Shown: positions 12,151-57,485, numbered from the stretch's first letter. The stretch: 64,000 nt of DNA from Candidatus Moraniibacteriota bacterium (GCA_037133435.1 JBAXOD010000002.1:23545-87544), one strand, 5' to 3'. Notes: generated by a model not told the origin, from the letters alone. Numbers and translations are program-made.

Positions 12151-12304
12151 TTCCACGAATACGCGCAGCCACATTTTTGATTGACTTTTTTTGTCGTTTG
12201 TGCTATATTTCCCTGTTATGGAGAGTCGTGCCCGGAAGTGTTCATCACCGACGGACAGACTGCCATAACAAGCTTTTTTACAACCATCAAAACAACTTAC
12301 GACC

Positions 12305-13234: not shown

Positions 13235-13262
13235 TTTTATTAAAAACAAAAAGCAACTAACG

Positions 13263-14492
13263 ATGCAACAAATCATTGATTTACTCGGTCTCATAGGGAT
13301 CAAGCTGACCCAAGAGATGCGATCCCTGCTTGTAAACGGAGTCACACGGCTCTATCAGACCTTGGTACTGTGGGTCCTGGCAATCATCATGTTGGTGCCC
13401 GTCGCGATTTTCTGCGGAGCAAACGGATGGAATTGGGTGAATCTCACCCTCTTCGTCTTGTTGCTCCCCTGTGTGGGAATCGCGTTCTTCACACCGGCAA
13501 ACGTCGTCTTCATGTTTCTGTTCGGCGGAGCGATGTGCTCGCTTTCCGATGCGAGCCGGCAACGATTTCTCGCCGGAGGCGAAGCCTACGTGAAAGGGAG
13601 CATCCGATTGATAGGCGGCTGCCTATTGGTCCTCGAAACGATCCTTTTCTATCTGGGATTCGTCGACATCAAGGAAAACCCATGGGCGGTCGTAGCGATA
13701 TTGATCGTAGCGATATTCATCACCCTCGATATCAAATTCGGTGGACGGCCCAGCTTCGGCAAAAAGATCCTCTATATTGTCGTCCCGAGTCTCATCGGTA
13801 TCGTCGCAGCGGTAAGTCTCATCAAGCCTGGCACGTGGACCAGTATTGGTTTACCGGCATGGTCCCTTGCGGATCACGGGCAACTTAACGACGTGACCGC
13901 GAGAATCGGGAAACAGATAGAAGAAAACCGGATCGCGGCGAGAAAAAAATCCGCCGACTCGCTCTATGCTGTCGTGGAATCCGGAAAGAGACTCTCTCCT
14001 GCCGGAGTACGACTCTATCACGAACTCATTCGTGAGGGGAAGAAGTACGATATCGTGTCAGCGGCCAAACAGACGAAGGAAAACGTCAGCGGAAACCAGG
14101 AAGTCCGTGAAAGGCTCTTCACGGTCCAACTCGATGGCACCAAGGAGAAGAAAGAGTCCGGTCTTCAGGATGGAGAACACATCTTCGTCATCAAGGATGG
14201 TCCGAACGGTCGTCCGCTCCTTCCCGTCTATACCATGACGAAAGATTTTGAGGGACGCGACGTGCAGATCCTATTCAATTCGTACGAACTCCAAAAGGGT
14301 GGTGAGAATACGATTGTCGCGATGGCGGAAGACGGGAACGAAGTCAGGGACGGCGGAAACATCACCATCCAAGGAGGAACGGTCAAAGTGCGCCTCGTCA
14401 TCGCGCCATGGCTGCAGAAAAAAATCGATTCAAAAAAATATATTCTCGGCGACGTGGTTGCCGTACTGGCATTCCAAAAGTCGAATTATTGA
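13263..14492 (+). CDS. Hypothetical polytopic membrane protein (N-terminal ~6 TM, C-terminal soluble domain)
   Basis: 409 aa; multiple hydrophobic helices in first 200 aa; no recognisable motif. Confidence 0.5.
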   Translation: MQQIIDLLGLIGIKLTQEMRSLLVNGVTRLYQTLVLWVLAIIMLVPVAIFCGANGWNWVNLTLFVLLLPCVGIAFFTPANVVFMFLFGGAMCSLSDASRQRFLAGGEAYVKGSIRLIGGCLLVLETILFYLGFVDIKENPWAVVAILIVAIFITLDIKFGGRPSFGKKILYIVVPSLIGIVAAVSLIKPGTWTSIGLPAWSLADHGQLNDVTARIGKQIEENRIAARKKSADSLYAVVESGKRLSPAGVRLYHELIREGKKYDIVSAAKQTKENVSGNQEVRERLFTVQLDGTKEKKESGLQDGEHIFVIKDGPNGRPLLPVYTMTKDFEGRDVQILFNSYELQKGGENTIVAMAEDGNEVRDGGNITIQGGTVKVRLVIAPWLQKKIDSKKYILGDVVAVLAFQKSNY

Positions 14493-19987: not shown

Positions 19988-20049
19988 GGAGAGATGACCG
20001 AGTGGTTGAAGGTACCGCTCTCGAAAAGCGGCAGGCCCGAAAGGGCCTC
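19988..20049 (+). pseudogene. 62-nt 5' fragment of tRNA-Ser(CGA) (acceptor through first half of T-loop), exact duplicate of 20391-20452
   Basis: ggagagatgaccgagtggttgaaggtaccgctctcgaaaagcggcaggcccgaaagggcctcgagggttcg identical in both copies; diverges inside T-loop. Confidence 0.75.
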
Positions 20050-20122
20050 GAGGGTTCGTCCGGCATACGCCGGACGCCCCGCGCATGCGGGGCGAATCCC
20101 ACATTTAAGGAGAAGGCTGCAT

Positions 20123-20386
20123 ATGTTCTATGTCTATATCCTCAGAAGCAAGAAAGACAATGACTTCTATATCGGGTCAACCGGAGATTTAAAAAGAAGA
20201 ATGAAAGAACATAATCGCGGAGTAGTGGAATCAACAAGACACAGACGACCTCTTGAACTCCTATGCTATGAAGCGTACAACTATAAAGAAGAAGCTCAAG
20301 CGAGAGAGCGTTTTCTAAAAAGCAGTGACGGAAAGAAAGATTTACGGAAACGATTGACTCGCAGTTTGGAAAAAAAGGAAAAATAA
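20123..20386 (+). CDS. Small GIY-YIG nuclease-domain protein (YhbQ/UPF0213-like)
   Basis: MFYVYILRSKKDNDFYIGSTGDLKRRMKEHN = GIY-YIG motif; AAGGAG SD 8 nt upstream of ATG at 20123; 87 aa. Confidence 0.75.
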   Translation: MFYVYILRSKKDNDFYIGSTGDLKRRMKEHNRGVVESTRHRRPLELLCYEAYNYKEEAQARERFLKSSDGKKDLRKRLTRSLEKKEK

Positions 20387-20390
20387 GTAC

Positions 20391-20477
20391 GGAGAGATGA
20401 CCGAGTGGTTGAAGGTACCGCTCTCGAAAAGCGGCAGGCCCGAAAGGGCCTCGAGGGTTCGAATCCCTCTCTCTCCT
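20391..20477 (+). tRNA. tRNA-Ser (anticodon CGA)
   Basis: Acceptor GGAGAGA/TCTCTCC, anticodon loop CTCGAAA, long variable arm CAGGCCCGAAAGGGCCTC, T-arm GAGGG-TTCGAAT-CCCTC. Confidence 0.85.
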
Positions 20478-20486
20478 CACTGAAAG

Positions 20487-20523
20487 AAAATCAGGATCCC
20501 ATTTTGGGGTCCTGATTTTTTTC
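20487..20523 (+). terminator. Rho-independent terminator after tRNA-Ser
   Basis: aaaatcaggatcccattttggggtcctgattttttt. Confidence 0.65.
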
Positions 20524-20529
20524 GGTTTG

Positions 20530-20665
20530 AATGGGAAAAAGGGATTCGAAAGCCGGACTGCTAGCAGGCAGGAGGCGGGGTCGCGACCTCGAGCACGGCC
20601 TTCGGAGGCCGGACGCTCGAGAGTTGTGACCGAGTCCCTCCCTTTCCTCAAAAGCGAATGACCGT
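20530..20665 (+). ncRNA. Structured tRNA-Ser-derived element 1 (14-bp closing helix GGAAAAAGGGATTC/GAGTCCCTCCCTTTCC); candidate small RNA or pseudo-tRNA
   Basis: 3' end gagtccctccctttcctca resembles tRNA-Ser 3' end; sits between two terminators. Confidence 0.3.
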
Positions 20666-20706
20666 CCCGATCATATTGGGGCGGTTATTCGTTTCTTGTG
20701 AGATGG

Positions 20707-20790
20707 AAGAGGGATTCGAAGGGATATGGAAATGTGAACGATTTCACGTTTCCATGTCCCCGGCCCGCAGGGGAATCCCTCCCTTTCCTC
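20707..20790 (+). ncRNA. Structured tRNA-Ser-derived element 2 (closing helix GGAAGAGGGATTC/GAATCCCTCCCTTTCC, internal 13-bp hairpin ATGGAAATGTGAA/TTCACGTTTCCAT)
   Basis: Direct reading of complementary segments; immediately followed by terminator. Confidence 0.3.
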
Positions 20791-20796
20791 AACGGA

Positions 20797-20833
20797 AATC
20801 AAAAGACTCCTGAATGGGGTCTTTTGATTTTTG
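20797..20833 (+). terminator. Rho-independent terminator
   Basis: aaatcaaaagactcctgaatggggtcttttgattttt. Confidence 0.65.
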
Positions 20834-21030
20834 TGTGTTGTGTTAATGGATGGATTCGAAATTGCAGGCATCTCAGGAAATCCGGCATTTCATTTGTCGC
20901 ATAGCGTCTGTCTTTCCACCGAAATGGATTGCGTGTCAAAGGTACGGATGATACAGTAAGGATGTTTTCGGATAATTCGGAAGATACCGAACAGTACCAT
21001 TCGAAGAATCAGACAGCCAAACGCTCTCAT

Positions 21031-22593
21031 ATGAGGATATCTTTGGAAAGTATTTTCTATCGCGTCATCCTTCCTTTCATGTTTCTTGAGGGATTTCTCC
21101 TGAGAATCGGCAATCTCAGAAAAGGTTTCTGGATCGACGAGTATCTCACCATCGAAACCGCACAGAAACTGACGTTTTTCAATCATACTGACACGGTCGG
21201 TCTCAACCCTTATTACGTCGGCCTCCGTCTGGTCGCATACCTCTTCGGTACCGACGAGACCGCCGTACGGATCATTTCCGTCCTGTTCGGTCTTGCGTCG
21301 GCATTCATCCTTTTCCTGATCGGAAAAAAATATTTTCACGAACGCGTCGGGCTCATCTCATCCTGTATCTTTCTGCTTACTCCCTTAGGCATATCGCTCG
21401 GTCAGGAAGTACGGCCATATTCCATGCTCCTTTTCCTTTCCCTGTGCCAACTATTTTTCTTTCTGGAAATATTGCAGTCCGTCTCCGAAGGTAAGCGGGT
21501 GAAAAATATCCGATTCATGCACCTCTCCGTCCTTACCCTGCTGATCCTGTTCATCCACCTGTCATCGGTATTATTCCTCGTCTCCGAAATGATCGTCCTT
21601 TCGTTCATAACGATCATCGAAAAACGGTGGCCGACGGACGTCTTCAAATATTATCTCGCTTGTTTGTTCCCGATGTTCGCGTTCTTCGCCTGGTTCTATC
21701 GTGACATCCTTACAAAACTCGGATTTATCGTTTCGGACCGGAATTACATTACCGTCTATTCAAACAGCGGACGCTCTTTCGCCGATGTGATCGTTTTCAT
21801 CCAGAATATCTCAACGGGACTCATCCCGGAGAAGCCAAAGGAGAGCCTGCTGGTATTCCTCCTTGCGCTCATTCTGATCGGAGCATCCATCGGCATTTGC
21901 CATTCTTTCATACGACGCGCCACGATCGTAAACGCCCTCTTTGGAATAACGATTCTCCGGATCTGCATCGGGCTGTCGATGCATGACTTCATTCCGAGAC
22001 ACGCGTTCATATTGACCCCTCTTTTTTCACTCTTTCTCGGAATATCCCTCTACAACCTTTCAAAAGTTCGCAGGGTTCCAAAGGTGGTCATTTTTTGCGT
22101 GTACGGATTCTTCATTCTGTCCCTCGCATATCTTTCACTGATTTCGCAGAAAGCCGAGAAAGCCGATCCGGGGAGACAATGGGGGTCGGTCGCCGATTTC
22201 GTCGAACGAAACGCCGGACCGGAAAAAGCGGTCATCGTGGCAGTCCCCTATCTGAAAGGGATATTCACCCATTATTATCATGGAACGACTCCGATCATCA
22301 CTATGGATGATTACAAGGAAAAATCACGAAATACCCTCATAGAGAACAATGAAATCGGTGTCTCGTTCATAAATCAAGAGCTGACCGATGCGTTGATCGG
22401 CAAGAGTATCGGGTTTCGAGAAATTCTGGTCGTCAAAGACGTTATCGCCTTAGATTTGAGCGATGTGGACAAACGCTTCGATACGGCTTTAGCAAGTCGT
22501 TTCATCCGGATCGATACAACCTGTTTCCCGGCTTCAGCGAAAATCCTGTGCGTCGAACGCTATCGAAGAGCCGACCAAGAGCCTATCCGTTAG
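21031..22593 (+). CDS. GT-C fold membrane glycosyltransferase (ArnT/PMT-like)
   Basis: ~12 TM, GFWIDE in first loop, N-terminal hydrophobic domain followed by C-terminal soluble domain; start at MRISLES. Confidence 0.5.
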   Translation: MRISLESIFYRVILPFMFLEGFLLRIGNLRKGFWIDEYLTIETAQKLTFFNHTDTVGLNPYYVGLRLVAYLFGTDETAVRIISVLFGLASAFILFLIGKKYFHERVGLISSCIFLLTPLGISLGQEVRPYSMLLFLSLCQLFFFLEILQSVSEGKRVKNIRFMHLSVLTLLILFIHLSSVLFLVSEMIVLSFITIIEKRWPTDVFKYYLACLFPMFAFFAWFYRDILTKLGFIVSDRNYITVYSNSGRSFADVIVFIQNISTGLIPEKPKESLLVFLLALILIGASIGICHSFIRRATIVNALFGITILRICIGLSMHDFIPRHAFILTPLFSLFLGISLYNLSKVRRVPKVVIFCVYGFFILSLAYLSLISQKAEKADPGRQWGSVADFVERNAGPEKAVIVAVPYLKGIFTHYYHGTTPIITMDDYKEKSRNTLIENNEIGVSFINQELTDALIGKSIGFREILVVKDVIALDLSDVDKRFDTALASRFIRIDTTCFPASAKILCVERYRRADQEPIR

Positions 22594-45926: not shown

Positions 45927-48404
45927 TCAATTATTCTCTGGCACTCTATCTACCAAACCGAACCGATGATCTCTTCCCATTGACTTATGTGCCGATTCCG
46001 CTTCTTTTTTTAGGGCGACTGCAGCAAGGTTAGTTTTATCTACTTCAGCAGCCGCGAGCTCTATGATCTTATCAGTCGATTTATTTATTTTCGCTCCATC
46101 CTCAGCTAGTTTCGCAAGATTACTCACAGTTTTACTGGCTCCTCCATTCGCTAAAAGCATCGGCATAATGGCAGCCAAATTGTCCGGATTCTTACTGACT
46201 GCGTCGAGCGTCAAAGCATCGGCTTTCTTGTACACGGAATCTTGTACAGCTATATTGGTTTTGACACTATTATGGAATTCACCTTCTCGAGAGAAGTATG
46301 CCTGGTGTGCCGCAGTACGTTGCTTCTCGAGAATTTTCTTTTCTTGTGGCGAACCAGCGGCATCTATTTTCGCCTTAATATCCGGATCAAATTGCGCAAC
46401 AGCAGTATCAAGATTCTCGGAAATCTTCACCGACTTTTCCCCATCCTTACTCAGTTCGTCGAGGACAGTCTGATTGATCTTATTCGCAGTAAGACCGGCC
46501 GCAAGCACCTCTGAGGTCAATGCGTTCGCAGTCTGACTTTCGAACTTAACCCTGCCACTCTTGAGCACCTTTGTCATTTCTTTGACATCAGTACCGTACG
46601 CCGCCTTTAGGTTCACCTCGGCAACATTCGCCCTCGTCTCCTTCACGACAGCATTGTCCATACCGCCGCGATCCTTGAAGTGATCCTCGACTAACTTCAT
46701 ATCGGCATTCTCCATCTTGCCCTGCAGTTCGGGACGTTTCCGCATCTCATCCAATACCGCCGTCATATGAAGGCCGTCTTTTCTGCTCTTCGCTTCGGCA
46801 TGCTGCTTCTCAAGCTCTGAAATCGACGTATTGGAATTGATAGCCCTTCGTTTCGCCTCTTCCTTTACGAGTTCCTGTTCACGCGTAAGCGCGCCCGTAG
46901 CGGCCATTTTCCTGCCCGCCTCGGTTCTGAATCTTGACTGCGCCGCGTTCCTCTCGGAAACCAAGTTGCGATGCTGGCCGAACCGCGTCCCGACATTGTT
47001 CCTACTGAATCGGTCATCCTTGAGTTTCTTCCTCTCGCTCCGATAGGCATCCACGCGCTTCTTGCCAGCTGTGATACCGGTCACGAATTTCATCGCTCCC
47101 ATCGCATATTTCTTCACCGCATCCGCTCCATAAATACCCATCATGTTTCCGACACTCATCGCCGCCCATATCATGATAACAGGGATGATTGTTATCACCA
47201 TCGAGGTAATAAGGGATGTATTGTCCGCTGATGTCCTGATTCCGGAAGTTATCGTCGTAATTGTCGTAGCAGCCGAACCATTCTTAAAGTTCTTCAGAAA
47301 CGTAACAGCTACAAGGATCATGAGCATTGCGGCTGGACCAAAAAACGCATATTTCATGAAATAGTCCCACCATTGTTTAGAAAATCTCTCCAATCCGGGG
47401 ATGGCGGACGCCGCAAATCCAATCGGCGAAAATATCACCAAAAGCAAAAGGGCCACCAAACGGACCAGAAACAATGCGGCGAGCATCAATAGTGACGCAG
47501 CCAATAGAAAAGTGAACACGATTGCCTGAATAAGAAACCCGGTCGTTTTCCCCTCCCAAAGAGATGATTTTGCCGTCGATGGCAAGAGAAATTTCGAATA
47601 CCCGCTATTCCCCATCAGTTGTTCGAAGATATTAGTAGCACTCTGATTGCTTGGCCCCAAAATACTGTCGATGAAAAAGTACATCGGCACATTCGTCGCG
47701 TCCACGATAAATCGGGACACCGGGAAACTGAAGTTCACTAAGAGAGCCATCAAGACGAGCTGTAAGAGCCATTTTCTATAATTGTATGCCTGAATCTGAA
47801 ATATCGTCCCGAATGCAACGAACAAAAGCGTCAGTATGAAGAACAGGTTGAAAAAATCCCGAACCATTCCCCACATCGTATAGGTGGCCGACATATTGAA
47901 CAGTTCCAGCCATACTTTCGCATCCACCGCCCACGCGAAAATTACCGCGGCGAGACCATAGAGCAGGCTGATAAAGGCAAGGACCGCATATAAAATGATG
48001 TTCAAAGCGCCCAGAAAAATATTTGCTGACAAATTCCCAACCGCTGAAGCAGCCTCTGCCAACGGTTTCACGGAGAGTGTTTCCGCCGCGTTTATAACAG
48101 GATCCGTAGAAAGAGCCGCAGCAAACAAACCAAGCGGCGCAGTATCGTACGTATAGTTCGCGTAATTCTTGCTCTTACAATACGCCCGGCAAGCCTCACC
48201 GCTCGCTGTCGGTGCCGCCGGAGGACTGATTGTTTCTTGAACTGGATGAAGTACCGCGCCACTGCGGCAAAAGCATGATTCTCCGGCTGCATGTGCTGTT
48301 TTTGCAAACGAGAAAAATATCGCGCCGGAAAACACAAAACTCACCAAAAAAATGGCTGAGGATACCGAAAAAGAAATGTTCTTGATTTTTTTCACAACAG
48401 GCAA
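45927..48404 (-). CDS. VirB6/TrbL-like polytopic membrane protein with long charged coiled-coil C-terminal domain
   Basis: Signal peptide, ~7 TM in residues 120-430, then Lys/Glu-rich 350-aa tail; architecture only. Confidence 0.45.
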   Translation of the reverse strand: MPVVKKIKNISFSVSSAIFLVSFVFSGAIFFSFAKTAHAAGESCFCRSGAVLHPVQETISPPAAPTASGEACRAYCKSKNYANYTYDTAPLGLFAAALSTDPVINAAETLSVKPLAEAASAVGNLSANIFLGALNIILYAVLAFISLLYGLAAVIFAWAVDAKVWLELFNMSATYTMWGMVRDFFNLFFILTLLFVAFGTIFQIQAYNYRKWLLQLVLMALLVNFSFPVSRFIVDATNVPMYFFIDSILGPSNQSATNIFEQLMGNSGYSKFLLPSTAKSSLWEGKTTGFLIQAIVFTFLLAASLLMLAALFLVRLVALLLLVIFSPIGFAASAIPGLERFSKQWWDYFMKYAFFGPAAMLMILVAVTFLKNFKNGSAATTITTITSGIRTSADNTSLITSMVITIIPVIMIWAAMSVGNMMGIYGADAVKKYAMGAMKFVTGITAGKKRVDAYRSERKKLKDDRFSRNNVGTRFGQHRNLVSERNAAQSRFRTEAGRKMAATGALTREQELVKEEAKRRAINSNTSISELEKQHAEAKSRKDGLHMTAVLDEMRKRPELQGKMENADMKLVEDHFKDRGGMDNAVVKETRANVAEVNLKAAYGTDVKEMTKVLKSGRVKFESQTANALTSEVLAAGLTANKINQTVLDELSKDGEKSVKISENLDTAVAQFDPDIKAKIDAAGSPQEKKILEKQRTAAHQAYFSREGEFHNSVKTNIAVQDSVYKKADALTLDAVSKNPDNLAAIMPMLLANGGASKTVSNLAKLAEDGAKINKSTDKIIELAAAEVDKTNLAAVALKKEAESAHKSMGRDHRFGLVDRVPENN

Positions 48405-48701
48405 ATCCTGAAGTCGAAATATTTGAAACCGGGCGCAACAATACGCGACATGATTATACTATAATTTTTGGAAAGAGAGAAACAGCAATAAGCAAGAGAA
48501 CATCTCACAAGTACGCCACAAGAGGACTGTCAATATTGAAACAAAAATTGAACCAGACTCTAAATTGTAGATATTGGAAATCTTTCCAACAAAACTAAAA
48601 TTATTGACCATGATAAGCAAAGCAACTTAAAAATAATGCGAATAAACAAAAAAAGAGAGGCCAATTGGTCTCTCTTGGAATTGATACCGTTGTCACAATA
48701 C

Positions 48702-49277
48702 CTATTGAGGCCGCGCATATGCCAAAATAGTATTATCAAAATAGTATTTCCGTTCCCACTCTTCCTCGACCGGACCATAATCCGTCCCATTTTCACTAAA
48801 TCGAGAAGAACTTCCATCACCGTAAAAAACAATTATCTCTGCTTTTAATTCGACTGGTATCACCAACTGCTCAATAGTATTATTTGTGATTCGGGCAACG
48901 TACCCGTATTTCACTTTCTCTACGCTCGCCCCAGTTGCCTTATGAAGTATATCGCCGATACTTGGATCAGGATTGACGTTATCGTCAGAAAGATATGAGA
49001 CAAGTAATGTGTTTCCGAACAGTTTGTGCGACAACTCAATATATTTCACCCCTCCGGTCAATTTGTTGTTCTTCCCTAAATGAAGCCTTTGTCCAGGAGG
49101 CGCACCACCAGATGAAACCAAAGTCTCTCCCCCCTGGCTCATTCCTGCCGAAACGATTGGCTGCGTGCCGTCATTTGCAGCACTGTTTCCATTGTTTTTA
49201 TTACTACTGCAAGCGCAGAGACCGACTATGCCCAAAAAAAAGGCAACTTGTACTAAATATACTAAAGATTTCTTCAT
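48702..49277 (-). CDS. Putative lipoprotein
   Basis: MKKSLVYLVQVAFFLGIVGLCAC signal/lipobox-like, 191 aa. Confidence 0.5.
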   Translation of the reverse strand: MKKSLVYLVQVAFFLGIVGLCACSSNKNNGNSAANDGTQPIVSAGMSQGGETLVSSGGAPPGQRLHLGKNNKLTGGVKYIELSHKLFGNTLLVSYLSDDNVNPDPSIGDILHKATGASVEKVKYGYVARITNNTIEQLVIPVELKAEIIVFYGDGSSSRFSENGTDYGPVEEEWERKYYFDNTILAYARPQ

Positions 49278-49479
49278 TTTACCCTCCTAAAAGGTTGTCG
49301 GGCCGAAAATGAACCCAGTTAAAAGATAACTGCATTATTTTTTTATAGATTTTCTTCCTGCTTCTGTTGTCAAAGGCGGAAGCACCTCCCGCCGGACTTT
49401 TGTCCATTGACCAAGAACAAATTCTCGGCATCAGACACCTCCCTTATACCATGTATTTTCAGACGAGTCAAGAGTCACG

Positions 49480-49860
49480 AAAATAAATTCTCACTTTTCC
49501 CTTATAAAAGCCACAAACGAAACATTTTCCCGATCAAATTTTCGGCCCGTAAGGTCATTTCGCGGGCTCAGGACTGCGCCCAGCACCGTACGGTACTGAG
49601 TCGTACCTCGTACCAGACGGTACGGGGTTGTACTCTAAACCTTTTCGCAGGTTCAGGGTTATACCCTGAACCACATCGTTTACGGCCGATGATGTGATTT
49701 CGACTTGTCAAACTATACCCTGCCGAGGCTAAGTCTTGGCAAACCAGCCTCCGCTCTAGCTTCGGCTTGGCAAGCCAGACTCCGCTCTAGCTTCGGCCTG
49801 GAAGGGAGAAAGAATGTTTCGAAGCAGGGTGCAACCCTGCTCCTGCAATAAAATTACATC
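49480..49860 (+). repeat. Hairpin repeat family copy c plus internal tandem 30-bp repeat (ggcaaaccagcctccgctctagcttcggc x2)
   Basis: tcccttataaaagccacaaa, cgcaggttcagggttataccctgaaccac, gaagcagggtgcaaccctgctcc. Confidence 0.6.
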
Positions 49861-49937
49861 TGATACGCGATAGCGTAGCAAATGTAACTTTTCGAAAATA
49901 TCTCAAATTTGATAATACTGCTACAGGTTGCCAATCC

Positions 49938-50150
49938 ATCCCCGTTCCCCTTTCAAAATTCGAAATTCAAAATTGCCCTGACCTCGTCCCCAACCCGTTA
50001 ACTCGTTAACCCGTGAACCGAATAACATCCCCTCCCGTTCCCCTTTCAAAATTCGAAATTCAAAATTCAAAATTGCTTTGACCTCGTTCCCAACACGTTA
50101 ACTCGTTAACCCGTGAACCGAATAACATCCCCTCCCGTTCCCGTTGTAAG
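49938..50150 (+). repeat. Two and a fraction tandem ~91-100-bp direct repeats containing ttcaaaattcgaaattcaaaattgc and cgttaactcgttaacccgtgaacc
   Basis: Units 49938-50028 and 50029-50128; third copy of the AT-rich core at 51346-51410 on the other side of the recombinase gene. Confidence 0.7.
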
Positions 50151-50193: not shown

Positions 50194-51177
50194 TCATTTC
50201 TTCCGTTTCTTCGCATGAAATTCCTCATGAATCTCGCGGAGCCGTTCGTTCGTCACATGGGTATACACCTGGGTAGTGGTAATGGAAGAATGGCCCAGCA
50301 TCGCCTGCACGGAACGGATGTCCGCCCCGTTTTGCAACAGATCGGTCGCGAAGGAGTGCCTCAGCGTGTGTGGATGGACATCCTTGACGATGCCGGCCTT
50401 GGCGGCGTATTTCTTCACCAATCGCTGTATACTCCGTTCGGTAAGCCGCATTCCGGCGTGTCCCTGCCGTTCCTTGGGCGCGCGTTTCGACTTGGGGATG
50501 GCGATAAAGAGCGCCTTGTCCATATCGCTTCGCTTTTCCAAATATCGCATAAGCGAATCTCGTGCGTCATCGGAGAGGAACACTACGCGGAGCTTGGATC
50601 CCTTGCCGCGCACGCTGAATTCACCCTTTTTCAGGTTCACCGAATCGCGATCAAGCGAAGTGAGCTCGGAAACGCGCAATCCTGCGGAAAACAGCAGTTC
50701 GAGGATCGCCCGGTCACGCAGAGCGCGAAGCGACCCGCCCGAAGCGGCAGCAAGGAGCCGTTCCACCTCGTCGAGCTCGAGAAACCCTACCTCGCGCGTC
50801 GGCGCCTTGCCGACCGCGATCTTCTCGGCCGGTACGGTATATTCGTCTTCGCGGGCCAGGTACTTGAGAAACGAACGAAGCACCACGATATGATATGTCT
50901 GGGTCGACTTACGGAGCGTTTCGCCACGCTCGTTGGTGACACGATTAAGCGAGAGACGGTATTCCCGGACACGTTCTGCCGTGATATCCGCCGGACTCTT
51001 GATGCCGCTCATTTCGAAAAACTTCCACAACGAACGCGTATAACTCTCAAGCGTCCGCGGAGAACGGTTCAGCTCTATCTCGAGATGTTCGAGAAACCGC
51101 TTCGCGAGCGCTTCGATCCGAGTCTCTGATTTCGGTGTCCCTGCATTCATATCCATTAAGTATACATGAAAAGTCAC
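50194..51177 (-). CDS. Tyrosine site-specific recombinase (XerC/XerD/phage-integrase family)
   Basis: C-terminal HTLRHSFATDLLQNGADIRSVQAMLGHSSITTTQVYTHV with catalytic R..H..R..Y. Confidence 0.85.
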   Translation of the reverse strand: MTFHVYLMDMNAGTPKSETRIEALAKRFLEHLEIELNRSPRTLESYTRSLWKFFEMSGIKSPADITAERVREYRLSLNRVTNERGETLRKSTQTYHIVVLRSFLKYLAREDEYTVPAEKIAVGKAPTREVGFLELDEVERLLAAASGGSLRALRDRAILELLFSAGLRVSELTSLDRDSVNLKKGEFSVRGKGSKLRVVFLSDDARDSLMRYLEKRSDMDKALFIAIPKSKRAPKERQGHAGMRLTERSIQRLVKKYAAKAGIVKDVHPHTLRHSFATDLLQNGADIRSVQAMLGHSSITTTQVYTHVTNERLREIHEEFHAKKRKK

Positions 51178-51545
51178 TTGTAAGGTGCGAGAAGTCGGTT
51201 CCCCATCCCCGCTCCCCGCTCCCTTCCTGCTCCACTGCCTGAGGGGAGCTCCCGTGGTTTTGCACGGGTGAGGGGTGGGAGAAGTTGCCCATCCTTATCC
51301 CCGCTCCTCACTTCTCACTCCTCATTCCTGTCCCCACTCCCCGCTCCCGTTCCCGTCCCCATTTCAAAATTCGAAATTCAAAATTCAAAATTGCTGAGAC
51401 CCTGTTCCTTATTATCTGCTCAGTGTTAACTGAAGTTATCCCTTATTCAAGGGTAAAGCTACCTATTTCACCATCAATTTTCGTTGACATTGCCCCCCTG
51501 CGGAAGCTATACTCGATTCCATATAACACCTTAGGGCGCCGGCGT

Positions 51546-52823
51546 ATGATGCGGACTCCCTTTCGAGCGAAAGGAGCCCATCTACCGCCCCGCCTCGTAG
51601 AAGGGAACGCCCGTATAGCATTCTTCTCCCGCATCCATAAAGGTTGGGCGCGAATCCGCGAATATGTCGCGGCGCGTTATGCGATAACCGAAACGTTCAT
51701 CCATCACGTCCAAAGCGAATGGTTCGCCGTCCTTCGCAACGGATTCGGCAAGAAGATCGCGGAAGTGTTCCGTTCATATGGATCATTTTCCCTCGTCATA
51801 ACGAGCGCCCTTCTGGTCTCGATGACGAATCTCACGCAGGAACAGGGATCCAAGAGCGCGATACTCGGCAGTTTCCGTGTTTCCATGGCACAAGATGCCG
51901 AACAACCGAGGATACGGGTCACCTCGGAACAACCGGCTAAAACGGGACTTTCCCAGGTTCCGCTCGAAAAATCATTTTCCGGCATAGATACGACGGCGCA
52001 GACCGAGGAAACGACATCCGCCGTCTTCCAAAGCGGCGCACTCCTTTCCGCACAGACCGAAAGCTCCATCGCTCGCGATCCGGAAGAGGAAGGCGGCGTC
52101 ACGATCTACACTGTCAAAGAAGGCGACACCATTTCCGGCATCGCGGCGGCCCACAACATCACCGTCAATACCATCCTCTGGGCGAACGACCTCGAGAACG
52201 TGGACGCGATCAAGCCTGGCGACGACATCTTCATCCTGCCGGTCGCCGGACTCTCTCATGTGATCGCAACAGGCGAAACGCTCGATTCCATCGCGGACAA
52301 ATACAAGGCCGACCGCAGCGCCATCATCGCGTTCAACGGGCTTCCCGCCAACGGCGAAATCACCGTCGGGGACACGGTCGTCATCCCGGGAGGTTCCAAG
52401 GAATTACCGAAGCCGCCGGAAGTCGTCGGGCTCCGCCAATACGCATCCTCGACGAGCGCCGGGTCCGTGACGGACATTTCCGGCGGATATCGCAAACTCG
52501 ACGGCAGGGCCGGCGCCGGGCATCGGTTCCCGTTCGGATACTGTACCTGGTACGTCGCGCAGAAACGGTACGTACCGTGGGGCGGCAACGCGGGAGCCTG
52601 GCTCTACAATGCGCGCTCGCAGGGATACCAGACCGGCAAGAGCCCGTCCGCGGGAGCGATCGTCGTGACGACCGACAGCGCCTACTACGGCCATGTGGCG
52701 CTCGTTGAGAGCGTATCCGGCGGGTCGATCACCGTATCGGAAATGAACTTCAACGCGTGGGGCAAGGTGGACCGCCGTGTCATACCCGCGTCGAGCCGTT
52801 CCATCAAGGGATACATCTACTAG
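51546..52823 (+). CDS. LysM-repeat / CHAP-domain peptidoglycan hydrolase
   Basis: Two LysM repeats (YTVKEGDTISGIAAAHNITVNTILWANDL; HVIATGETLDSIADKYKADRSAIIAFNGL), CHAP-like C-terminus with Cys (GYCTWYV) and His (YGHVALVE); start uncertain. Confidence 0.65.
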   Translation: MMRTPFRAKGAHLPPRLVEGNARIAFFSRIHKGWARIREYVAARYAITETFIHHVQSEWFAVLRNGFGKKIAEVFRSYGSFSLVITSALLVSMTNLTQEQGSKSAILGSFRVSMAQDAEQPRIRVTSEQPAKTGLSQVPLEKSFSGIDTTAQTEETTSAVFQSGALLSAQTESSIARDPEEEGGVTIYTVKEGDTISGIAAAHNITVNTILWANDLENVDAIKPGDDIFILPVAGLSHVIATGETLDSIADKYKADRSAIIAFNGLPANGEITVGDTVVIPGGSKELPKPPEVVGLRQYASSTSAGSVTDISGGYRKLDGRAGAGHRFPFGYCTWYVAQKRYVPWGGNAGAWLYNARSQGYQTGKSPSAGAIVVTTDSAYYGHVALVESVSGGSITVSEMNFNAWGKVDRRVIPASSRSIKGYIY

Positions 52824-52824
52824 C

Positions 52825-53715
52825 ATGAAAAAAAGGGTCGCCGTCATCATCGGTCGGTTCCAGGTGCCCACGCTCCACGAGGGGCACCGGCATATCATCG
52901 ATTTCGCCCGCTCACATGCCGACGCGCTCCTGATCCTCATCGGCACGACGGCGGCACTCCCGTCGGCACGCAATCCCCTTCCCTATGCCGTCCGTGAGCA
53001 CATCGTCGCCGAAGCATATCCGGATGCGGTGATCCTGGAAACGAAAGATCATCCGTCCAACCGTATCTGGTCCGAAGACATCGATCACATCGTCGCCGAA
53101 CGCTTCCCCGATCACGAAGCGACGCTCTACGGTTCGCGCGACAGTTTCATCCCCTATTACGAAGGTGCGCTTCCGTGCGTCTTCGTCCCACCCGCGGACG
53201 CCCCCTCGGGCACGGAAATCCGAAACGCGCTCGACCCGCTTCATGATGACCCGATATTCCGATCGGGCATGATTCACGCGCAGACGCTCCGTCCACCGCT
53301 CTCCTACCAGGTCGTCGATATCGCCGTCATACGGAAAGAAGACGCTTCCGTCTTGCTCGGTATGAAACGTTCGGCCGAAGGAAAACGATGTTTCATCGGT
53401 GGATTCGTCGACCCGCAAGATGAGGATCTCGAATCGACGGCCCTGCGGGAACTGCGCGAGGAAGCCGGCCCGGTTCTCTGCGGTGATCTTCGCTATGTCG
53501 GTTCGTTCCGGATTCCCGACCACCGCTATCGCGACGGCGACGACAAGGTCATGACCGCGCTTTTCGTAGCCGAATATCACGGAGGCGAACCCGTCGCAGG
53601 AGACGATCTTGATGAGGTAGAATGGATCAATCTGGTCGATCTCGAGTCAGTCCTCGTCGCAGGCCATCTGCCGCTCGCGAAGCGGCTGCTCTCATATCTG
53701 GAGTCCGAACGATAG
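52825..53715 (+). CDS. nadM: Bifunctional NMN adenylyltransferase / Nudix hydrolase (NadM-Nudix)
   Basis: GRFQVPTLHEGH (HxGH NTase motif) N-domain; Nudix box GGFVDPQDEDLESTALRELREEAG. Confidence 0.75.
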   Translation: MKKRVAVIIGRFQVPTLHEGHRHIIDFARSHADALLILIGTTAALPSARNPLPYAVREHIVAEAYPDAVILETKDHPSNRIWSEDIDHIVAERFPDHEATLYGSRDSFIPYYEGALPCVFVPPADAPSGTEIRNALDPLHDDPIFRSGMIHAQTLRPPLSYQVVDIAVIRKEDASVLLGMKRSAEGKRCFIGGFVDPQDEDLESTALRELREEAGPVLCGDLRYVGSFRIPDHRYRDGDDKVMTALFVAEYHGGEPVAGDDLDEVEWINLVDLESVLVAGHLPLAKRLLSYLESER

Positions 53716-53736
53716 TCTGGCAATACGATATCACCC

Positions 53737-53766
53737 ACAAAAAAACCGCTTCATGCGGTTTTTTTG
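53737..53766 (+). terminator. Rho-independent terminator
   Basis: aaaaaaaccgcttcatgcggtttttttg. Confidence 0.65.
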
Positions 53767-54104
53767 CAATCATTATTTTCAAAAGTTGCGAGTGAGTGCC
53801 CCGTACTTTCTTCCTGTTCCCCTGCCAGAGGAGGATTATCTGACAACAAGGAAAATGATCCGTTGAGTCTTCGAAACTGAAGGTTGGGAGAAATTCCCCG
53901 CATCCTTGACTTGCCACGGCCTCCGCGGCTTCGCAAAGACCGAAGGTATCACGCTCCCGTTCCCTGCTATCTGCTCAATGTTATCTGCTCCCTGATCCCT
54001 GACTCATGTTCCCTGTCTCATGTTATCTGTTCTCTGTTGTCAGTAGTTAGTTGTAAGTTGTCAGTGGTTAGTTGTCAGTTATAGGTTATCAGTCGTCAAT
54101 TCTT

Positions 54105-54785
54105 CTACAACACCTCCACGGTCTTCGGTTTGCGCGCCGTGAAAGAATACAGCCGCGCCGGGCGACTCTGTCCCGACTGGCGGACTTTCCCTGTTTCTTT
54201 GACAAGTTCGATATCCAAGATCTTCTTGCGAAAATTCCGCTTGTCGAGCTCGTGCCCGAGAATGATCTCGTAGACGGTCTGCAGTTCGGTCAGGGTGAAT
54301 TCCTTGGGCAGGAGTCCGTACGCGATATTGGAATATCCGATTTTGCTTCTGAGCCGATCGACGCCGACTGAGACGATCTTCGCGTGATCGAACGCCATCT
54401 TCGGCAAATGCGCCGTATCGTGCCAGGCGATATCGGAATAATATTCGATGGTCGAGGGAAGGCACCGGTCGCTGTTCACGAGCGCGAAATATGCCGTCGA
54501 GACACTCCGCCCACGAACATCACGATCCACACCTCCAAACGTGAATAACTGTTCCAGATAAATATCATCGACACCGGCCTTTTCCGAAAGGATTCGTTCC
54601 GCGGCCTGATCGAGGGATTCATCCATACGGACCAATCCGCCGGGCAACGCCCATTTCCCTTCGTAGGGACCGCTGCCGATCCGGATAAGCAACACCCTGA
54701 GCGCTCCGTCGATGACGGAAAAAATGGCGGTGTCGACCGCGATCAGTATCGACTGGCCGAGTGGCGGCGTGACATTTTTTTTCAT
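54105..54785 (-). CDS. nrtR: NrtR-type Nudix-related transcriptional regulator of NAD metabolism
   Basis: N-terminal degenerate Nudix domain (GKWALPGGLVRMDESLDQAAERILSEKAG) plus C-terminal winged-helix region; flanked by nadM/nadV. Confidence 0.7.
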   Translation of the reverse strand: MKKNVTPPLGQSILIAVDTAIFSVIDGALRVLLIRIGSGPYEGKWALPGGLVRMDESLDQAAERILSEKAGVDDIYLEQLFTFGGVDRDVRGRSVSTAYFALVNSDRCLPSTIEYYSDIAWHDTAHLPKMAFDHAKIVSVGVDRLRSKIGYSNIAYGLLPKEFTLTELQTVYEIILGHELDKRNFRKKILDIELVKETGKVRQSGQSRPARLYSFTARKPKTVEVL

Positions 54786-54907
54786 ATGGGTAGCGTAAAA
54801 AGAAGAAGTGTACCGCCTACAGCATACCCCGACACTCGAACCGAGGTCAATCAGGCGACGCAATCCTTCTCAACACCTCCCTGCTCACGGCATTTGACAC
54901 AATTTTG

Positions 54908-54930
54908 TTAGTGTGTATAATACACTTAGT
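54908..54930. promoter_or_regulatory. Candidate NrtR operator 1: ttagtgtgtataatacacttagt with perfect 13-bp palindrome GTGTATAATACAC overlapping a TATAAT box
   Basis: Direct reading; in divergent nrtR-nadM intergenic region. Confidence 0.45.
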
Positions 54931-55082
54931 TGGTTCACAGGAAGGACGCGCGCGAGAATCGGCGCGGGACGGTCGTACGGCAACCGACGGGACCCATTTC
55001 AGTTCCCGGCTTCGCTGCCAACGATGACCGTCCCGCCCGCATTCTCCCGCCGGTGCCTCGGCATCGGTATGCTTGTCCTTAC

Positions 55083-55100
55083 TTAGTGTATATAAAACAC
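55083..55100. promoter_or_regulatory. Candidate NrtR operator 2: ttagtgtatataaaacac, 45 bp upstream of nadM2 start
   Basis: Shares ACTTAGTGT(G)TATA with site 1. Confidence 0.35.
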
Positions 55101-55142
55101 GATGTGTACGTTCACAATCAACCAAAAAAACAGGAGACCGTT

Positions 55143-56048
55143 ATGAAACGTCTTGCCGTCATTATCGGCCGATTCCAGGTCGCCCTTCTTCACGAAGGAC
55201 ACCGGCATCTCATCGAAACCGCGCGATCGGAAGCCGATTCGGTGCTCATCCTTCTCGGAAGCACCCCGGCACTCCCCTCGTCACGCAATCCGCTTCCCAT
55301 CCATATCAGAAAGGCTATGATCCACGAAACGTATCCCGATGTCCGCATCGAGGAACTTCCGGATCACCCGTCCAACCGCCTGTGGTCGGAAAGTATAGAC
55401 GAGATGATCTCGGAGCATTTTCCCGATCATACCGCCCGACTGTACGGCTCCCGGGACAGTTTCATTCCATGTTACGAAGGTTTCCTGCCGTGTGTTCTCG
55501 TCCCTCCGGCCGTCGCGCCGTCGGGAACGGAACTGCGCTCAGACATATCCGCCGTAAACCGTGACGGTCAGGACTTCCGCGCCGGCATCATCCACGCGCA
55601 GACCCTTCGTCTGCCGATCTCCTATCAGACCGTGGACATAGCGGTCATCAGACATCCGCAGAACGAGGTCCTCCTCGGAAGGAAACGTCATGACGGGGAC
55701 CGGTTCCGCTTCATAGGCGGTTTTGCTGACCCGATGGACGTTTCGCTCGAAGCGGCCGCCATGCGCGAACTGCACGAGGAGGCGGGTCACGTGGACTGCC
55801 ACGAGATCGACTATCTCGGATCGTTCCGTATTCCGGATTACCGGTACCGCTGCGAGGAGGATCAGATCATGACAGCCTTTTTCGCGACCTACCACCTCGG
55901 CGGGGCACCGAGGGCCGGTGACGATCTCGACGAAGTCGCCTGGATCCCGATCGTGGAGATCGAATCGCTCATCGTCGAGAATCATCTGCCGCTGGCGAAA
56001 CGACTGGTCGCGTACATCAATCAAAAGAAAAACGGAGCACGATCATGA
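55143..56048 (+). CDS. nadM: Bifunctional NMN adenylyltransferase / Nudix hydrolase (NadM-Nudix), second paralog
   Basis: GRFQVALLHEGH; Nudix box GGFADPMDVSLEAAAMRELHEEAG; collinear with 52825-53715. Confidence 0.75.
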   Translation: MKRLAVIIGRFQVALLHEGHRHLIETARSEADSVLILLGSTPALPSSRNPLPIHIRKAMIHETYPDVRIEELPDHPSNRLWSESIDEMISEHFPDHTARLYGSRDSFIPCYEGFLPCVLVPPAVAPSGTELRSDISAVNRDGQDFRAGIIHAQTLRLPISYQTVDIAVIRHPQNEVLLGRKRHDGDRFRFIGGFADPMDVSLEAAAMRELHEEAGHVDCHEIDYLGSFRIPDYRYRCEEDQIMTAFFATYHLGGAPRAGDDLDEVAWIPIVEIESLIVENHLPLAKRLVAYINQKKNGARS

Positions 56049-57424
56049 ACAACGTTGAAAACATAATCCTTCTGACCGACAGCTACAAGCCGTCGCATTG
56101 GAAACAGTACCCCAAAGGGACCACGGACATCTACGGGTTCCTCGAAAGCCGCGGCGGCGAGTTTCCCGAGATCCTTTTCTTCGGTCTCCAGTATTTCCTG
56201 AAGAGATACCTCGCCGGTCCGGTCGTATCCGGAGAAGATATCGCTGAAGCCCGCGAAATCTTCGCGGCACATTTCGGAAACGGCGCGATCTTCAACGAAG
56301 CCGGATGGAAACGGATCGTCGAACGTCACGGCGGGCATCTGCCCGTACGGATCAAGGCGGTGCCCGAAGGGACGGCCGTTCCGAACTCGAACGTGCTCAT
56401 GACCGTCGAAAGTACCGATCCGGAAATGGCCTGGCTCCCGAACTACCTCGATCCGCTCCTGACAGAGCTGTGGTATCCCAGCACCGTCGCGACCCAAAGC
56501 AAGGCGATGAAGAACATCATCCTCGAATACCTCGAGGAAACCGGCGACCCCGCTTTGATCGACTTCAAACTCCATGACTTCGGGTTCCGCGGTTCGACCA
56601 GCCCGGAATCCGCCGGTATCGGGGGTGCCGCACACCTGGTGAACTTCATGGGAAGCGACAACCTCCCGGCGATCCGCATGCTGCGACGTCTCTATGCCGA
56701 GCAGATGGCCGGATTCTCCATCCCTGCAGCGGAACACAGTACGATAACGTCGTGGGGGAAAGATCACGAAGTGGACGCGTTCCGGAACATGCTCGAGCAG
56801 TTCCCCGAAGGGCTCGTTGCGGTCGTCTCCGACAGCTACGATATCTTCAAAGCCTGCCGCGAACTCTGGGGCGGAGAACTCCGGGAGAAAGTCCTCGAGA
56901 GGAACGGCGCACTCGTCGTACGGCCCGACAGCGGGGACCCCGCCACGGTCGTCGTCGAGGTACTGAACATCCTCGGTGAAGCCTTCGGCACGGAAACGAA
57001 TCGTAAGGGCTACAGGGTGCTCGACCCGCACGTCAGGGTCATCCAGGGAGACGGCATCGATCTCCGCTCGCTTCCCGTGATCCTGTCGCACATGAAGAAA
57101 AACGGGTGGTCCGCCGACAACGTCGCCTTCGGTTCGGGCGGCGGCCTTCTCCAAAAGGTGAACCGCGACACGAACCGTTTCGCGTTCAAATGTTCCGCGG
57201 CGAAGATCGACGGCGTCTGGAGGGAAGATATCATGAAAGACCCGGTCACAGATCCCGGAAAGAAATCCAAGTCGGGCAGGATGAAACTCATCCGTGAAAA
57301 CGGCACGTTCAGGACCGTGTCCGAAAATATACCCGGCGAGGATCAGCTCGTCACGGTGTTCGAGAACGGCCGAATCCTCAGGGAATGTTCGCTCGCGGAA
57401 ATCCGTGAAAGGGCGAATGCCTGA
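56045..57424 (+). CDS. nadV: Nicotinamide phosphoribosyltransferase
   Basis: N-terminal ILLTDSYKPSHWKQYPKGT typical of NAMPT/NadV; 459 aa; ATGA overlap with nadM2. Confidence 0.8.
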   Translation: MNNVENIILLTDSYKPSHWKQYPKGTTDIYGFLESRGGEFPEILFFGLQYFLKRYLAGPVVSGEDIAEAREIFAAHFGNGAIFNEAGWKRIVERHGGHLPVRIKAVPEGTAVPNSNVLMTVESTDPEMAWLPNYLDPLLTELWYPSTVATQSKAMKNIILEYLEETGDPALIDFKLHDFGFRGSTSPESAGIGGAAHLVNFMGSDNLPAIRMLRRLYAEQMAGFSIPAAEHSTITSWGKDHEVDAFRNMLEQFPEGLVAVVSDSYDIFKACRELWGGELREKVLERNGALVVRPDSGDPATVVVEVLNILGEAFGTETNRKGYRVLDPHVRVIQGDGIDLRSLPVILSHMKKNGWSADNVAFGSGGGLLQKVNRDTNRFAFKCSAAKIDGVWREDIMKDPVTDPGKKSKSGRMKLIRENGTFRTVSENIPGEDQLVTVFENGRILRECSLAEIRERANA

Positions 57425-57435
57425 AACGGGAAACG

Positions 57436-57478
57436 AAAAAGCGTTCCGAGAACCATCGGGACGCTTTTCTTATTTTTC
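57436..57478. terminator. Bidirectional terminator between nadV and pcrA
   Basis: aaaaagcgttccgagaaccatcgggacgcttttcttatttttc. Confidence 0.5.
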
Positions 57479-57485
57479 ACGGCGG

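Follow-up and report, generated by a model that had tools for sequence, protein, structure and literature searches.

The stretch of DNA analyzed in this study (hereafter the window) comprises 64 kb of Candidatus Moraniibacteriota bacterium (GCA_037133435.1, JBAXOD010000002.1:23545-87544), and the counts of box and core matches in the window cover these 64 kb. It contains a locus for the salvage synthesis of nicotinamide adenine dinucleotide (NAD) that consists of the following four genes: nadM1; nrtR on the opposite strand; nadM2; and nadV (Table 1). As the first-pass annotation of this DNA had described, the regulator gene nrtR is flanked by two collinear nadM-Nudix genes of about 300 amino acids (aa), on which coordinates and Pfam domains agreed, and the stop codon of nadM2 shares an ATGA with the start codon of nadV, a 4-nucleotide (nt) overlap at 56045-56048. 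The gene identities, motifs, site statistics, conservation, phylogeny and synteny computed here suggested that this is probably a chromosomal NAD salvage locus of an uncultivated member of the Moranbacteria (Patescibacteria, candidate phyla radiation), in which nadM2-nadV is repressed by NrtR and an old copy, nadM1, lies outside the regulon. Related loci or contigs are labelled with L (L003, L005 and so on), and NadM homologues with P (P0001 and so on).

Table 1. Genes, candidate control sites and RNA elements of the locus, with positions in the window.
Feature	Position	Strand	Remarks
nadM1	52825-53715	+	296 aa; NadM-type NMN adenylyltransferase fused to Nudix domain
nrtR	54105-54785	-	226 aa; Nudix-like effector domain and winged-helix DNA-binding domain
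nadM2	55143-56048	+	301 aa; NadM-Nudix copy under predicted NrtR control
nadV	56045-57424	+	459 aa; nicotinamide phosphoribosyltransferase
nadM2-nadV promoter, TTGACA-16-TATAAT	54894-54921	+	12/12; sole perfect one in 5-kb promoter scan
Operator box 1, TTAGTGT-GTATAAT-ACACTTA	54908-54928	.	candidate; covers -10 hexamer
Operator box 2, TTAGTGT-ATATAAA-ACACGAT	55083-55103	.	candidate; inside 5' untranslated region
nrtR promoter, TTGACC-18-TATGCT	-35 54850-54845, -10 54826-54821	-	promoter scan 9/12
Box 0, CTGT-AGGCGGT-ACAC	54805-54825	-	candidate; over nrtR -10 and transcription start; core 7/8
Leader A of nadM2-nadV	54928-55142	+	conserved structured 5' untranslated region
Hairpin A, GGCA-AC-CGA-CGGGAC-loop-G.UCCCG-GCU-UCG-C-UGCC	54979-55019	+	
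Hairpin B, CCGGUGC-CUCG-GCAUCGG	55050-55067	+	followed by 17-nt pyrimidine-rich tail up to box 2 core
Bidirectional intrinsic terminator, nadM1/nrtR	53738-53766	.	perfect 12-nt arms CAAAAAAACCGC / GCGGTTTTTTTG, 5-nt loop
Intrinsic terminator 3' of nadV, common to convergent pcrA	57437-57478	+	13-bp stem, then CTTATTTTTC

The salvage enzyme and the regulator were both recognized by their domains. NadV matched the Pfam families NAMPT_N (PF18127; 133.5 bits, E 3.4e-39) and NAPRTase (PF04095; 198 bits, E 2.7e-58), and its 624 bits against NCBIfam NF006629 exceeded the 405-bit cut-off; the NAMPT N-terminal and type II phosphoribosyltransferase domains of the NadV family were present above curated cut-offs. 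NrtR showed the architecture of its family, an N-terminal Nudix-like domain (Pfam NUDIX, residues 19-138, E 4.5e-12) and a C-terminal winged helix (NrtR_WHD, residues 157-215, E 4.3e-27). Judged by its residues, the Nudix signature of NrtR (GLVRMDESLDQAAERILSEKAGV, residues 50-73) is degenerate and would be non-catalytic, as is characteristic of this family: the REUxEExGU segment reads RILSEKAGV, with two of the three catalytic glutamates replaced. Against the NCBIfam model NF050029, 'ADPR responsive transcriptional repressor', the protein scored 180 bits (E 4e-53), under the 400-bit cut-off, and by Pfam it is a member of the family, not an equivalog of the protein behind NF050029.

The NrtR operator has been described as a 21-bp palindrome with a GT-N7-AC core in most NrtR groups (Rodionov et al. 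2008, PMC2330246), and three candidate sites of this kind were found in a stretch of 300 bp that precedes NAD metabolism genes. In boxes 1 and 2, which lie 175 bp apart, TTAGTGTGTATAATACAC (54908-54925) and TTAGTGTATATAAAACAC (55083-55100) are identical at 16 of 18 positions. A motif scan of the kind proposed in the first-pass annotation returned only these two matches to the box pattern, where 0.01 would be expected, and at least seven of the eight positions of GTGT-N7-ACAC were present at five places in the window, three of them within 300 bp at this locus. The assignment to an NrtR regulon was thereby borne out, as both boxes fit the 21-bp rule of PMC2330246 and the same motif recurs in about half of 80 NrtR loci. 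Parts of the earlier description needed correction. The palindrome noted there, GTGTATAATACAC (54913-54925; GTGTAT-A-ATACAC, that is 6+1+6 with the centre base unpaired), is present inside box 1, but the working register, common to both boxes, to the orthologous loci and to NrtR loci of other phyla, is GTGT-N7-ACAC rather than the 13-nt palindrome. The related box upstream of nadM2 exists as well; it is located about 160 nt from the 5' end of the transcript, and 42 nt, not 45 nt, separate the end of its core from the nadM2 ATG. Both boxes had been said to overlap -10-like hexamers, which holds for box 1 and its consensus promoter but not for box 2, where the candidate second promoter TATATA/TATAAA was absent from the promoter scan and unconserved in the orthologous leaders. 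Box 0 at the nrtR promoter and the conserved structured 5' untranslated region (5'UTR) had not been noticed in that reading.

Conservation among relatives pointed in the same direction. The nadM2-nadV promoter was near-identical in 10 Moranbacteria loci, and the Moranbacteria operator consensus, TTAGTGT-N7-ACACTAA, was found at every promoter adjoining nrtR or its operon. Box 0 was conserved at every monocistronic nrtR examined: the arrangement ATTGACC-N17/18-TATNCTGT-N7-ACACTT was kept upstream of the gene in L003, L005, L008, L211 and L212, and in L210 the site is a full GTGT-N7-ACAC. In box 2, TTAGTGT and an ACA at the N7 spacing were invariant in 10 of 10 orthologous units around a variable spacer. 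Beyond this group, GTGT-N7-ACAC occurred beside nrtR homologues in about 40 of the 80 loci, which belong to many phyla, often at most 100 nt upstream of nrtR, and some of these loci had tandem sites about 22-50 bp apart. No operator was found upstream of nadM1 or its orthologues, the sole 7/8 core match lying 950 nt away in the LysM-CHAP open reading frame. In L005, a third promoter/operator (7270-7340; TTGACA...TTAGTGT-GTATAGT-ACATTAA, 13/14 to the consensus) lies between nadV and a 271-aa gene, which indicates a larger regulon there.

The leader between box 1 and nadM2 (leader A) was found to be strongly structured, with a minimum free energy of -89 kcal/mol against -67.2 +/- 4.2 in shuffles (z -5.1). 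It is composed of conserved blocks between diverged spacers at eight loci, where it lies 5' of nadM2-nadV or of a pncA-like operon. By RNAalifold pair counts, nine pairs carried two-sided changes, compared with 4.6 in shuffles and reached by 3 of 500, and the covariation score was 0.164 against 0.095 in shuffles (0 of 500), in a sample that is small and made of closely related sequences. Of the 45 columns of hairpin A, 27 do not vary among the eight leaders, and compensatory changes were seen in L210 (CAGG/CCUG) and in L211 and L212 (GGGGC/GUCCCC). Hairpin B occurred in four stem versions among 10 units (CCGAUGC/GCAUCGG, CCGACGC/GCGUCGG, CGAGCC/GGCUCG and CCGGGC/GCCCGG), always 17-19 nt from the GTGT core of box 2 across the pyrimidine-rich tail, and this fixed distance suggests that hairpin and box act jointly.

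No Rfam family matched the leader (54928-55142) at E values up to 10 in a search of 53700-55200, whose five weak matches all lay in 53724-54059, and none matched the sequences of L005, L207 and L210 at E values up to 1. When 84 sources (the window, the 80 NrtR loci of many phyla and three Moranbacteria loci) were scanned with a covariance model of hairpin A, no further credible instance was obtained; since only these leaders were found, the element appears confined to a narrow group of Moranbacteria. The metagenome pattern GGCAACCGAN{18,32}TCGCTGCC was too loose and yielded no extra leader sequences: of its at least 120 matches, all those listed were chance occurrences with neither the hairpin nor a nearby operator. 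In viral contigs, the hairpin A pattern had 21 matches and the box 1 core had 48; the two hairpin-pattern matches that scored with the covariance model were the same sequence, and the one in L220 lay inside a phage structural gene. Two structural proposals were likewise rejected. Hairpin A was not accepted as a kink-turn, since by inspection the strand opposite the bulge lacks GA beside the closing stem. An upstream peptide over hairpin B and box 2 (MPRHR...PYLV) was discarded because its ATG is lost in L005 through a change that preserves the hairpin, its start in the window is GTG, and the frames differ among loci.

Whether the leader constitutes a second layer of control, and of which kind, was weighed next to the repressor sites. 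The 5'UTR may be a cis-regulatory RNA, new to description, of Patescibacteria nicotinamide-salvage operons, a proposal that is conceivable but doubtful at present and has two versions. In one, hairpin B and bound NrtR could form a composite device that makes termination conditional on ADP-ribose; in the other, the near-invariant hairpin A could bind a ligand or protein as a second input beside NrtR. It is unlikely that the leader RNA by itself, as a riboswitch or protein-binding attenuator, replaces NrtR at box 2 as the second control layer. On that view, box 2 would owe its conservation chiefly to a role as 3' strand in a long-range helix with the 5' end of the transcript, or to its position in the tail of hairpin B. 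This explanation would account for the strength of the structure, the covariation of hairpins A and B, the roughly 27 invariant positions of hairpin A amid diverged spacers and the occurrence of one leader before two different nicotinamide-using operons; GUAAG after box 1 and CUUAC before box 2 are moreover conserved, complementary and outside the 21-bp operators, and the absence of an Rfam match would make such a leader an undescribed one. However, the placement of ACA exactly 7 nt past GTGT in all 10 units is predicted by the NrtR GT-N7-AC rule and not by an RNA model. The helix that RNAalifold drew from the 5' end of the transcript to box 2 showed no compensatory change, the only changes, in L210 and the window, being ones that break pairs, and it was retained only for this explanation; the complementarity of boxes 1 and 2 follows automatically from the half-sites that two operators have in common. 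Furthermore, the element rests on eight to nine closely related sequences and was found nowhere else by the covariance model. An RNA layer and an NrtR layer are not mutually exclusive.

Several related leaders deserve separate mention. L283 (1776-2386, minus strand) has a longer leader 5' of its pncA-like gene, with an altered hairpin A region and two tandem units of the form 'GC hairpin, Y-rich tail, TTAGTGT-N7-ACAH'. A YACAACC / CAACAAC motif was seen 15-25 nt 5' of the Shine-Dalgarno sequence in the window (55111-55123), L003, L005, L207, L209-L212 and L283, and also near position 7320 of L005; both the heptad repeat 3' of nrtR and the CAACCGA that flanks hairpin A are similar to it. The pnuC-nadR-nrtR operons (L007 5100-5230; L207 2514-2646, minus strand; L209 7771-7903, minus strand; L213 6100-6228) have the same promoter and operator with another conserved leader, which contains a hairpin of its own, GGAUGCCG...CGGUCAUCC, and in which no Shine-Dalgarno sequence could be seen; the L207 version had no match in Rfam.

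The two NadM proteins both matched the Pfam NUDIX and cytidylyltransferase-like families, and NadM1 passed the NUDIX cut-off. Over 295 aa they share 61% identity and 76% similarity (E 2e-131), a moderate resemblance where the first-pass annotation had called them highly similar. The family-wide motifs GRFQ..LHEGH, SGTE(I/L)R and REL(R/H)EEAG were present in both copies, corresponding to the (H/T)xGH, SxTxxR and REUxEExGU motifs of bifunctional NadM enzymes, and the Gx5Ex7 half of the Nudix box is off its canonical spacing across the whole NadM subfamily. A Glu-to-Val change in this first half of the NadM2 box was considered as a loss of function and set aside, as the column varies across the family and the difference is therefore uninformative. 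An AlphaFold2 model of NadM2 built with 58 homologues reached a predicted local distance difference test score of 93, and its six top Foldseek matches in the PDB were Francisella 2QJT and 2R5W and Synechocystis 2QJO, at full length and E values of 5e-18 to 1e-16; the nucleotidyltransferase and Nudix folds of two-domain NadM were both present. Identity to the solved NadM enzymes was about 20% (phmmer E 1.5e-7). From their sequences, neither copy appears degenerate, and both are assigned to a divergent NadM subfamily, common in Patescibacteria, with activities predicted from homologues.

The nadM1 ATG lies 1 nt after the stop codon of the LysM-CHAP gene, so that nadM1 is probably co-transcribed with that gene, outside the regulon. 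That nadM1 is decaying or monofunctional, for example an ADP-ribose pyrophosphatase only, so that the locus has one real nicotinamide mononucleotide (NMN) adenylyltransferase, appears improbable. Its Shine-Dalgarno sequence is weak and distant, and its N-terminal Pfam match (CTP_transf_like) is marginal at 20.3 bits (E 6.7e-4), slightly below the 21-bit cut-off. Nevertheless, the N-terminal match of NadM2 is equally weak, and the 1-nt gap to the upstream stop codon is compatible with translational coupling. The nadM1 reading frame is also full length and keeps GRFQVPTLHEGH, SGTEIR and RELREEAG as the whole family does, and the sole nadM at the locus in L006 and L003 is an orthologue from the NadM1 clade.

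Comparison with related contigs revealed a common backbone in which type-IV-secretion-like genes, LysM-CHAP and xerC lie on one side of a variable slot and pcrA and DUF212 on the other. This slot contains nadM1 only, in the order xerC-nadM1-pcrA and without nrtR, in L006; nadM1, a cupin gene and nrtR divergent from a pncA-like...PP2C...pncB operon in L003; nrtR divergent from the pncA-like operon, without nadM1, in L211, L212 and L283; and nrtR divergent from nadM2-nadV in L005 and L210. In L207 and L209, nadM2-nadV has pnuC-nadR-nrtR as its divergent neighbour, and xerC of L209 is not followed by nadM1; pnuC-nadR-nrtR stands alone in L007 and L213. One other lineage has nrtR divergent from nadM-nadV and a second nadM-Nudix gene 8 kb away. 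On this distribution, nadM1 is, as far as sequence comparison tells, the older, locus-resident copy, whose position between xerC and pcrA is conserved, and nrtR with its promoter/operator would be a module that drives different salvage genes, namely nadM2-nadV, pncA...pncB or pnuC-nadR. The placing of such a module in the variable slot beside nadM1 produces the picture of a regulator flanked by two copies. Of the earlier suggestion that a second salvage module had been acquired, the modular part stood, since nrtR, promoter/operator and nadM2-nadV behave as a unit that in relatives is present, absent or exchanged for other salvage genes at one and the same chromosomal position, and the phage/defence origin did not.

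Further observations were made around the slot. The divergent xerC / LysM-CHAP pair (window 50194-52823) is inverted relative to L003, L006, L209, L211-L213 and L283, so that nadM1 follows LysM-CHAP here at 1 nt and xerC at 34 nt in L003 and L006. The pncA-like first gene (L003 10743-11558, L211 6829-7644, L212 954-1781) begins with M..HLMIIDPQNDF and looks like a nicotinamidase/isochorismatase; it has no precomputed Pfam match, and the L003 protein matched NCBIfam PncA weakly (E 8e-7, below the cut-off). It is followed by genes of unknown function, a PP2C phosphatase gene and a gene for a PncB-type nicotinate phosphoribosyltransferase. In L283, a 232-aa gene just upstream of nrtR has faint Pfam matches to LSDAT_prok and LDcluster4. 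Isochorismatase-family and ADP-ribosylglycohydrolase genes lie a few kb upstream of pnuC-nadR-nrtR in L213 (1-2535), which suggests a wider NAD and ADP-ribose neighbourhood.

A phage origin of nadM2-nadV was considered with reference to the second NAD reconstitution pathway (NARP2), in which nicotinamide phosphoribosyltransferase (Nampt) and NMN adenylyltransferase (Nmnat) are encoded together and convert nicotinamide to NMN and then to NAD (Osterman et al., bioRxiv 10.1101/2024.02.11.579819). The gene pair itself corresponds to NARP2, as nadM2 and nadV overlap by 4 nt, and this NadM type has homologues in jumbo and huge phages; the variable slot also adjoins a tyrosine recombinase gene and type-IV-secretion-like genes. 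An enzyme of phage KVP40 with a Nudix fusion was reportedly described by Lee and colleagues in 2017. However, the best phage homologues were only 41.8% (NadM, from a jumbo phage) and 54.7% (NadV) identical, compared with 55-72% for NadM2 and 64-91% for NadV in Patescibacteria (NadV: Moranbacteria 80-91%, other Patescibacteria 64-72%). Phage homologues are thus far more distant than Patescibacteria ones, and the phage/NARP2 origin raised in the first-pass annotation was not supported. The neighbours are chromosomal housekeeping genes (pcrA, Mur ligase, xerC), and the secretion-like genes, together with xerC and LysM-CHAP, belong to a backbone conserved in all relatives and not to an insertion. 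The operon is moreover under a predicted autoregulated metabolic repressor, as in free-living bacteria, and neither prophage borders around 54105-57480 nor a position of NadM2 or NadV inside a phage clade was seen. It is therefore very improbable that nadM2-nadV is a NARP2-like pair acquired from phage or kept against NAD-depleting immunity, and the NARP2 comparison gave no evidence for an anti-defence role of the two genes.

The age of the duplication was assessed among 1142 homologues. NadM2 is 66-72% identical to its orthologues P0001-P0004; for NadM1 the values are 78% (P0014, from another genome) and 60-64% (the other orthologues). In a neighbour-joining tree with 200 bootstraps, the NadM1 clade (seven members) was supported by 197/200 and the NadM2 clade (five members) by 198/200, and a joint clade that also takes in P0005 by 153/200. 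These separate, well-supported clades, the closer orthologues in other Moranbacteria and the 61% identity between the copies indicate that the duplication is old and suggest that it predates the split of several Moranbacteria lineages. A recent tandem duplication of nadM around nrtR within this lineage, with two copies that are still redundant, is scarcely credible and by sequence phylogeny appears already refuted, even though the copies share strand, length and architecture and lie 1.4 kb apart, because in relatives each copy is found without the other at the same locus and the flanks contain no common duplicated DNA, nadM1 abutting the LysM-CHAP gene and nadM2 standing behind a 357-nt regulatory region. 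Within the module, rates of change differ sharply between the window and L005, where NadV is 91%, NrtR 81% and NadM2 70% identical.

Against the reading of an NrtR-repressed nadM2-nadV operon beside an old, unregulated nadM1, several points have to be counted. The NCBIfam PRK05379 series gave 58 bits for NadM1 and 51 bits for NadM2, which do not pass its cut-offs of 354-449 bits, and these low equivalog scores, together with the low identity to solved enzymes, make the substrate preferences of both proteins uncertain. Box 0 has CTGT in place of GTGT in most loci, and the right arm of box 2 is weak, being ACAA or ACAT in 5 of the 10 orthologous units. Further NrtR sites, or a nadD/nadE route, may lie beyond the 64-kb window. 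The sister relation of NadM1 and NadM2 was weakly supported (74/200), and transfer between related lineages instead of duplication in place is possible.

With these points considered, the NrtR-controlled salvage locus would operate as follows, with DNA binding, the response to ADP-ribose, the enzyme activities and attenuation all predicted. By analogy with characterised homologues, NadV would convert nicotinamide and phosphoribosyl pyrophosphate to NMN, the N-terminal domain of NadM2 would convert NMN and adenosine triphosphate to NAD, and its Nudix domain would most likely hydrolyse ADP-ribose. The two genes would be expressed as one operon from the consensus sigma-70-type promoter. NrtR at box 1 most likely occludes the -10 hexamer and represses nadM2-nadV, and box 0, over the -10 and start site of nrtR, most likely serves for autorepression. 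Box 2 within the 5'UTR is most likely a further NrtR binding site, where, tentatively, the repressor may stall RNA polymerase just past the weak terminator-like hairpin B. ADP-ribose from NAD consumption would release NrtR, as for studied NrtR proteins, and turn salvage on, with nadM1 most likely giving constitutive NMN adenylyltransferase activity.

The surroundings of the four genes showed the following features. The chromosomal neighbours are xerC and the LysM-CHAP hydrolase gene upstream and pcrA/uvrD, DUF212 and Mur ligase genes downstream. The nadM1/nrtR terminator matched in Rfam solely the terminator part of an unrelated model. Directly 3' of the nrtR stop codon, in the 340-nt spacer between nrtR and this shared terminator, nine tandem 7-nt GTTGTCA units (window 54036-54098, plus strand) form (UGACAAC)n on the sense strand of nrtR; they may serve as a C-rich, G-poor region for Rho loading or as a protein-binding array. 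A comparable array lies 3' of nrtR in L008 (4810-4860) and in none of 10 other related loci. Patches of lower G+C content, 0.44-0.49 against about 0.55-0.59 elsewhere in the window, were found at 1-2000, 12001-14000, 20001-22000 and 46001-50000.

The closest described system is the regulon of NrtR (Slr1690) in Synechocystis sp. PCC 6803, where NrtR binds upstream of nadM-nadV in gel shifts and ADP-ribose releases it (PMC2330246). Both systems have a Nudix and winged-helix repressor, a NadM-Nudix gene followed by nadV, a palindromic GT-N7-AC operator and ADP-ribose as the expected inducer. Unlike the Synechocystis regulon, this one, in a member of the Patescibacteria and with a NadM about 20% identical to that of Synechocystis, has an nrtR gene divergent from its target and apparently autoregulated through its own box, three boxes of which one lies deep in a structured 5'UTR, overlapping nadM and nadV genes (ATGA) and a second, unregulated nadM beside the regulator. 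In Shewanella oneidensis and Acinetobacter, NrtR controls prs-nadV through tandem operators, both bound in gel shifts (PMC2330246); more than one NrtR site before a nadV-containing operon is predicted here as well, with nadM in place of prs as the partner gene. In contrast to the NrtR loci of other phyla and their closely spaced tandem sites, boxes 1 and 2 are 175 bp apart with a conserved structured RNA between them. The NadM enzymes of Francisella tularensis and Synechocystis (2QJT, 2R5W, 2QJO) share the two-domain architecture and were the best structural matches; the H.GH motif aligns with that of the Francisella enzyme, and SGT..R and RE..EE are conserved across this protein family. The present proteins are nevertheless shorter (about 300 against 340-350 aa), carry two additional residues before H.GH, depart from the canonical Nudix box in its first half and score far under the NCBIfam equivalog cut-offs. 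Phage NARP2, as in Vibrio phage KVP40, takes the same route from nicotinamide through NMN to NAD by co-encoded Nampt and Nmnat, whereas the genes studied here are chromosomal, predicted to be repressor-controlled and nearest to cellular relatives.

In conclusion, the metabolism of Patescibacteria is strongly reduced and they are thought to rely on scavenging cofactors or cofactor precursors; this locus shows the probable route to NAD in one of them, nicotinamide salvage through NadV and NadM, under what is proposed to be the same ADP-ribose-sensing repressor logic as in free-living bacteria. The salvage operon is itself ordinary for NrtR regulons, and the pair of a constitutive and a regulated nadM paralogue is a modest finding; what appears new is the conserved structured 5'UTR with its embedded operator. 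In the slot between xerC and pcrA, interchangeable routes (nicotinamide via NadV, nicotinamide via PncA/PncB and riboside via PnuC/NadR) stand behind one conserved promoter/operator, a compact form of modular pathway swapping. Wider mechanistic interest would attach only to the leader unit of hairpin plus operator, provided that this unit is functional.

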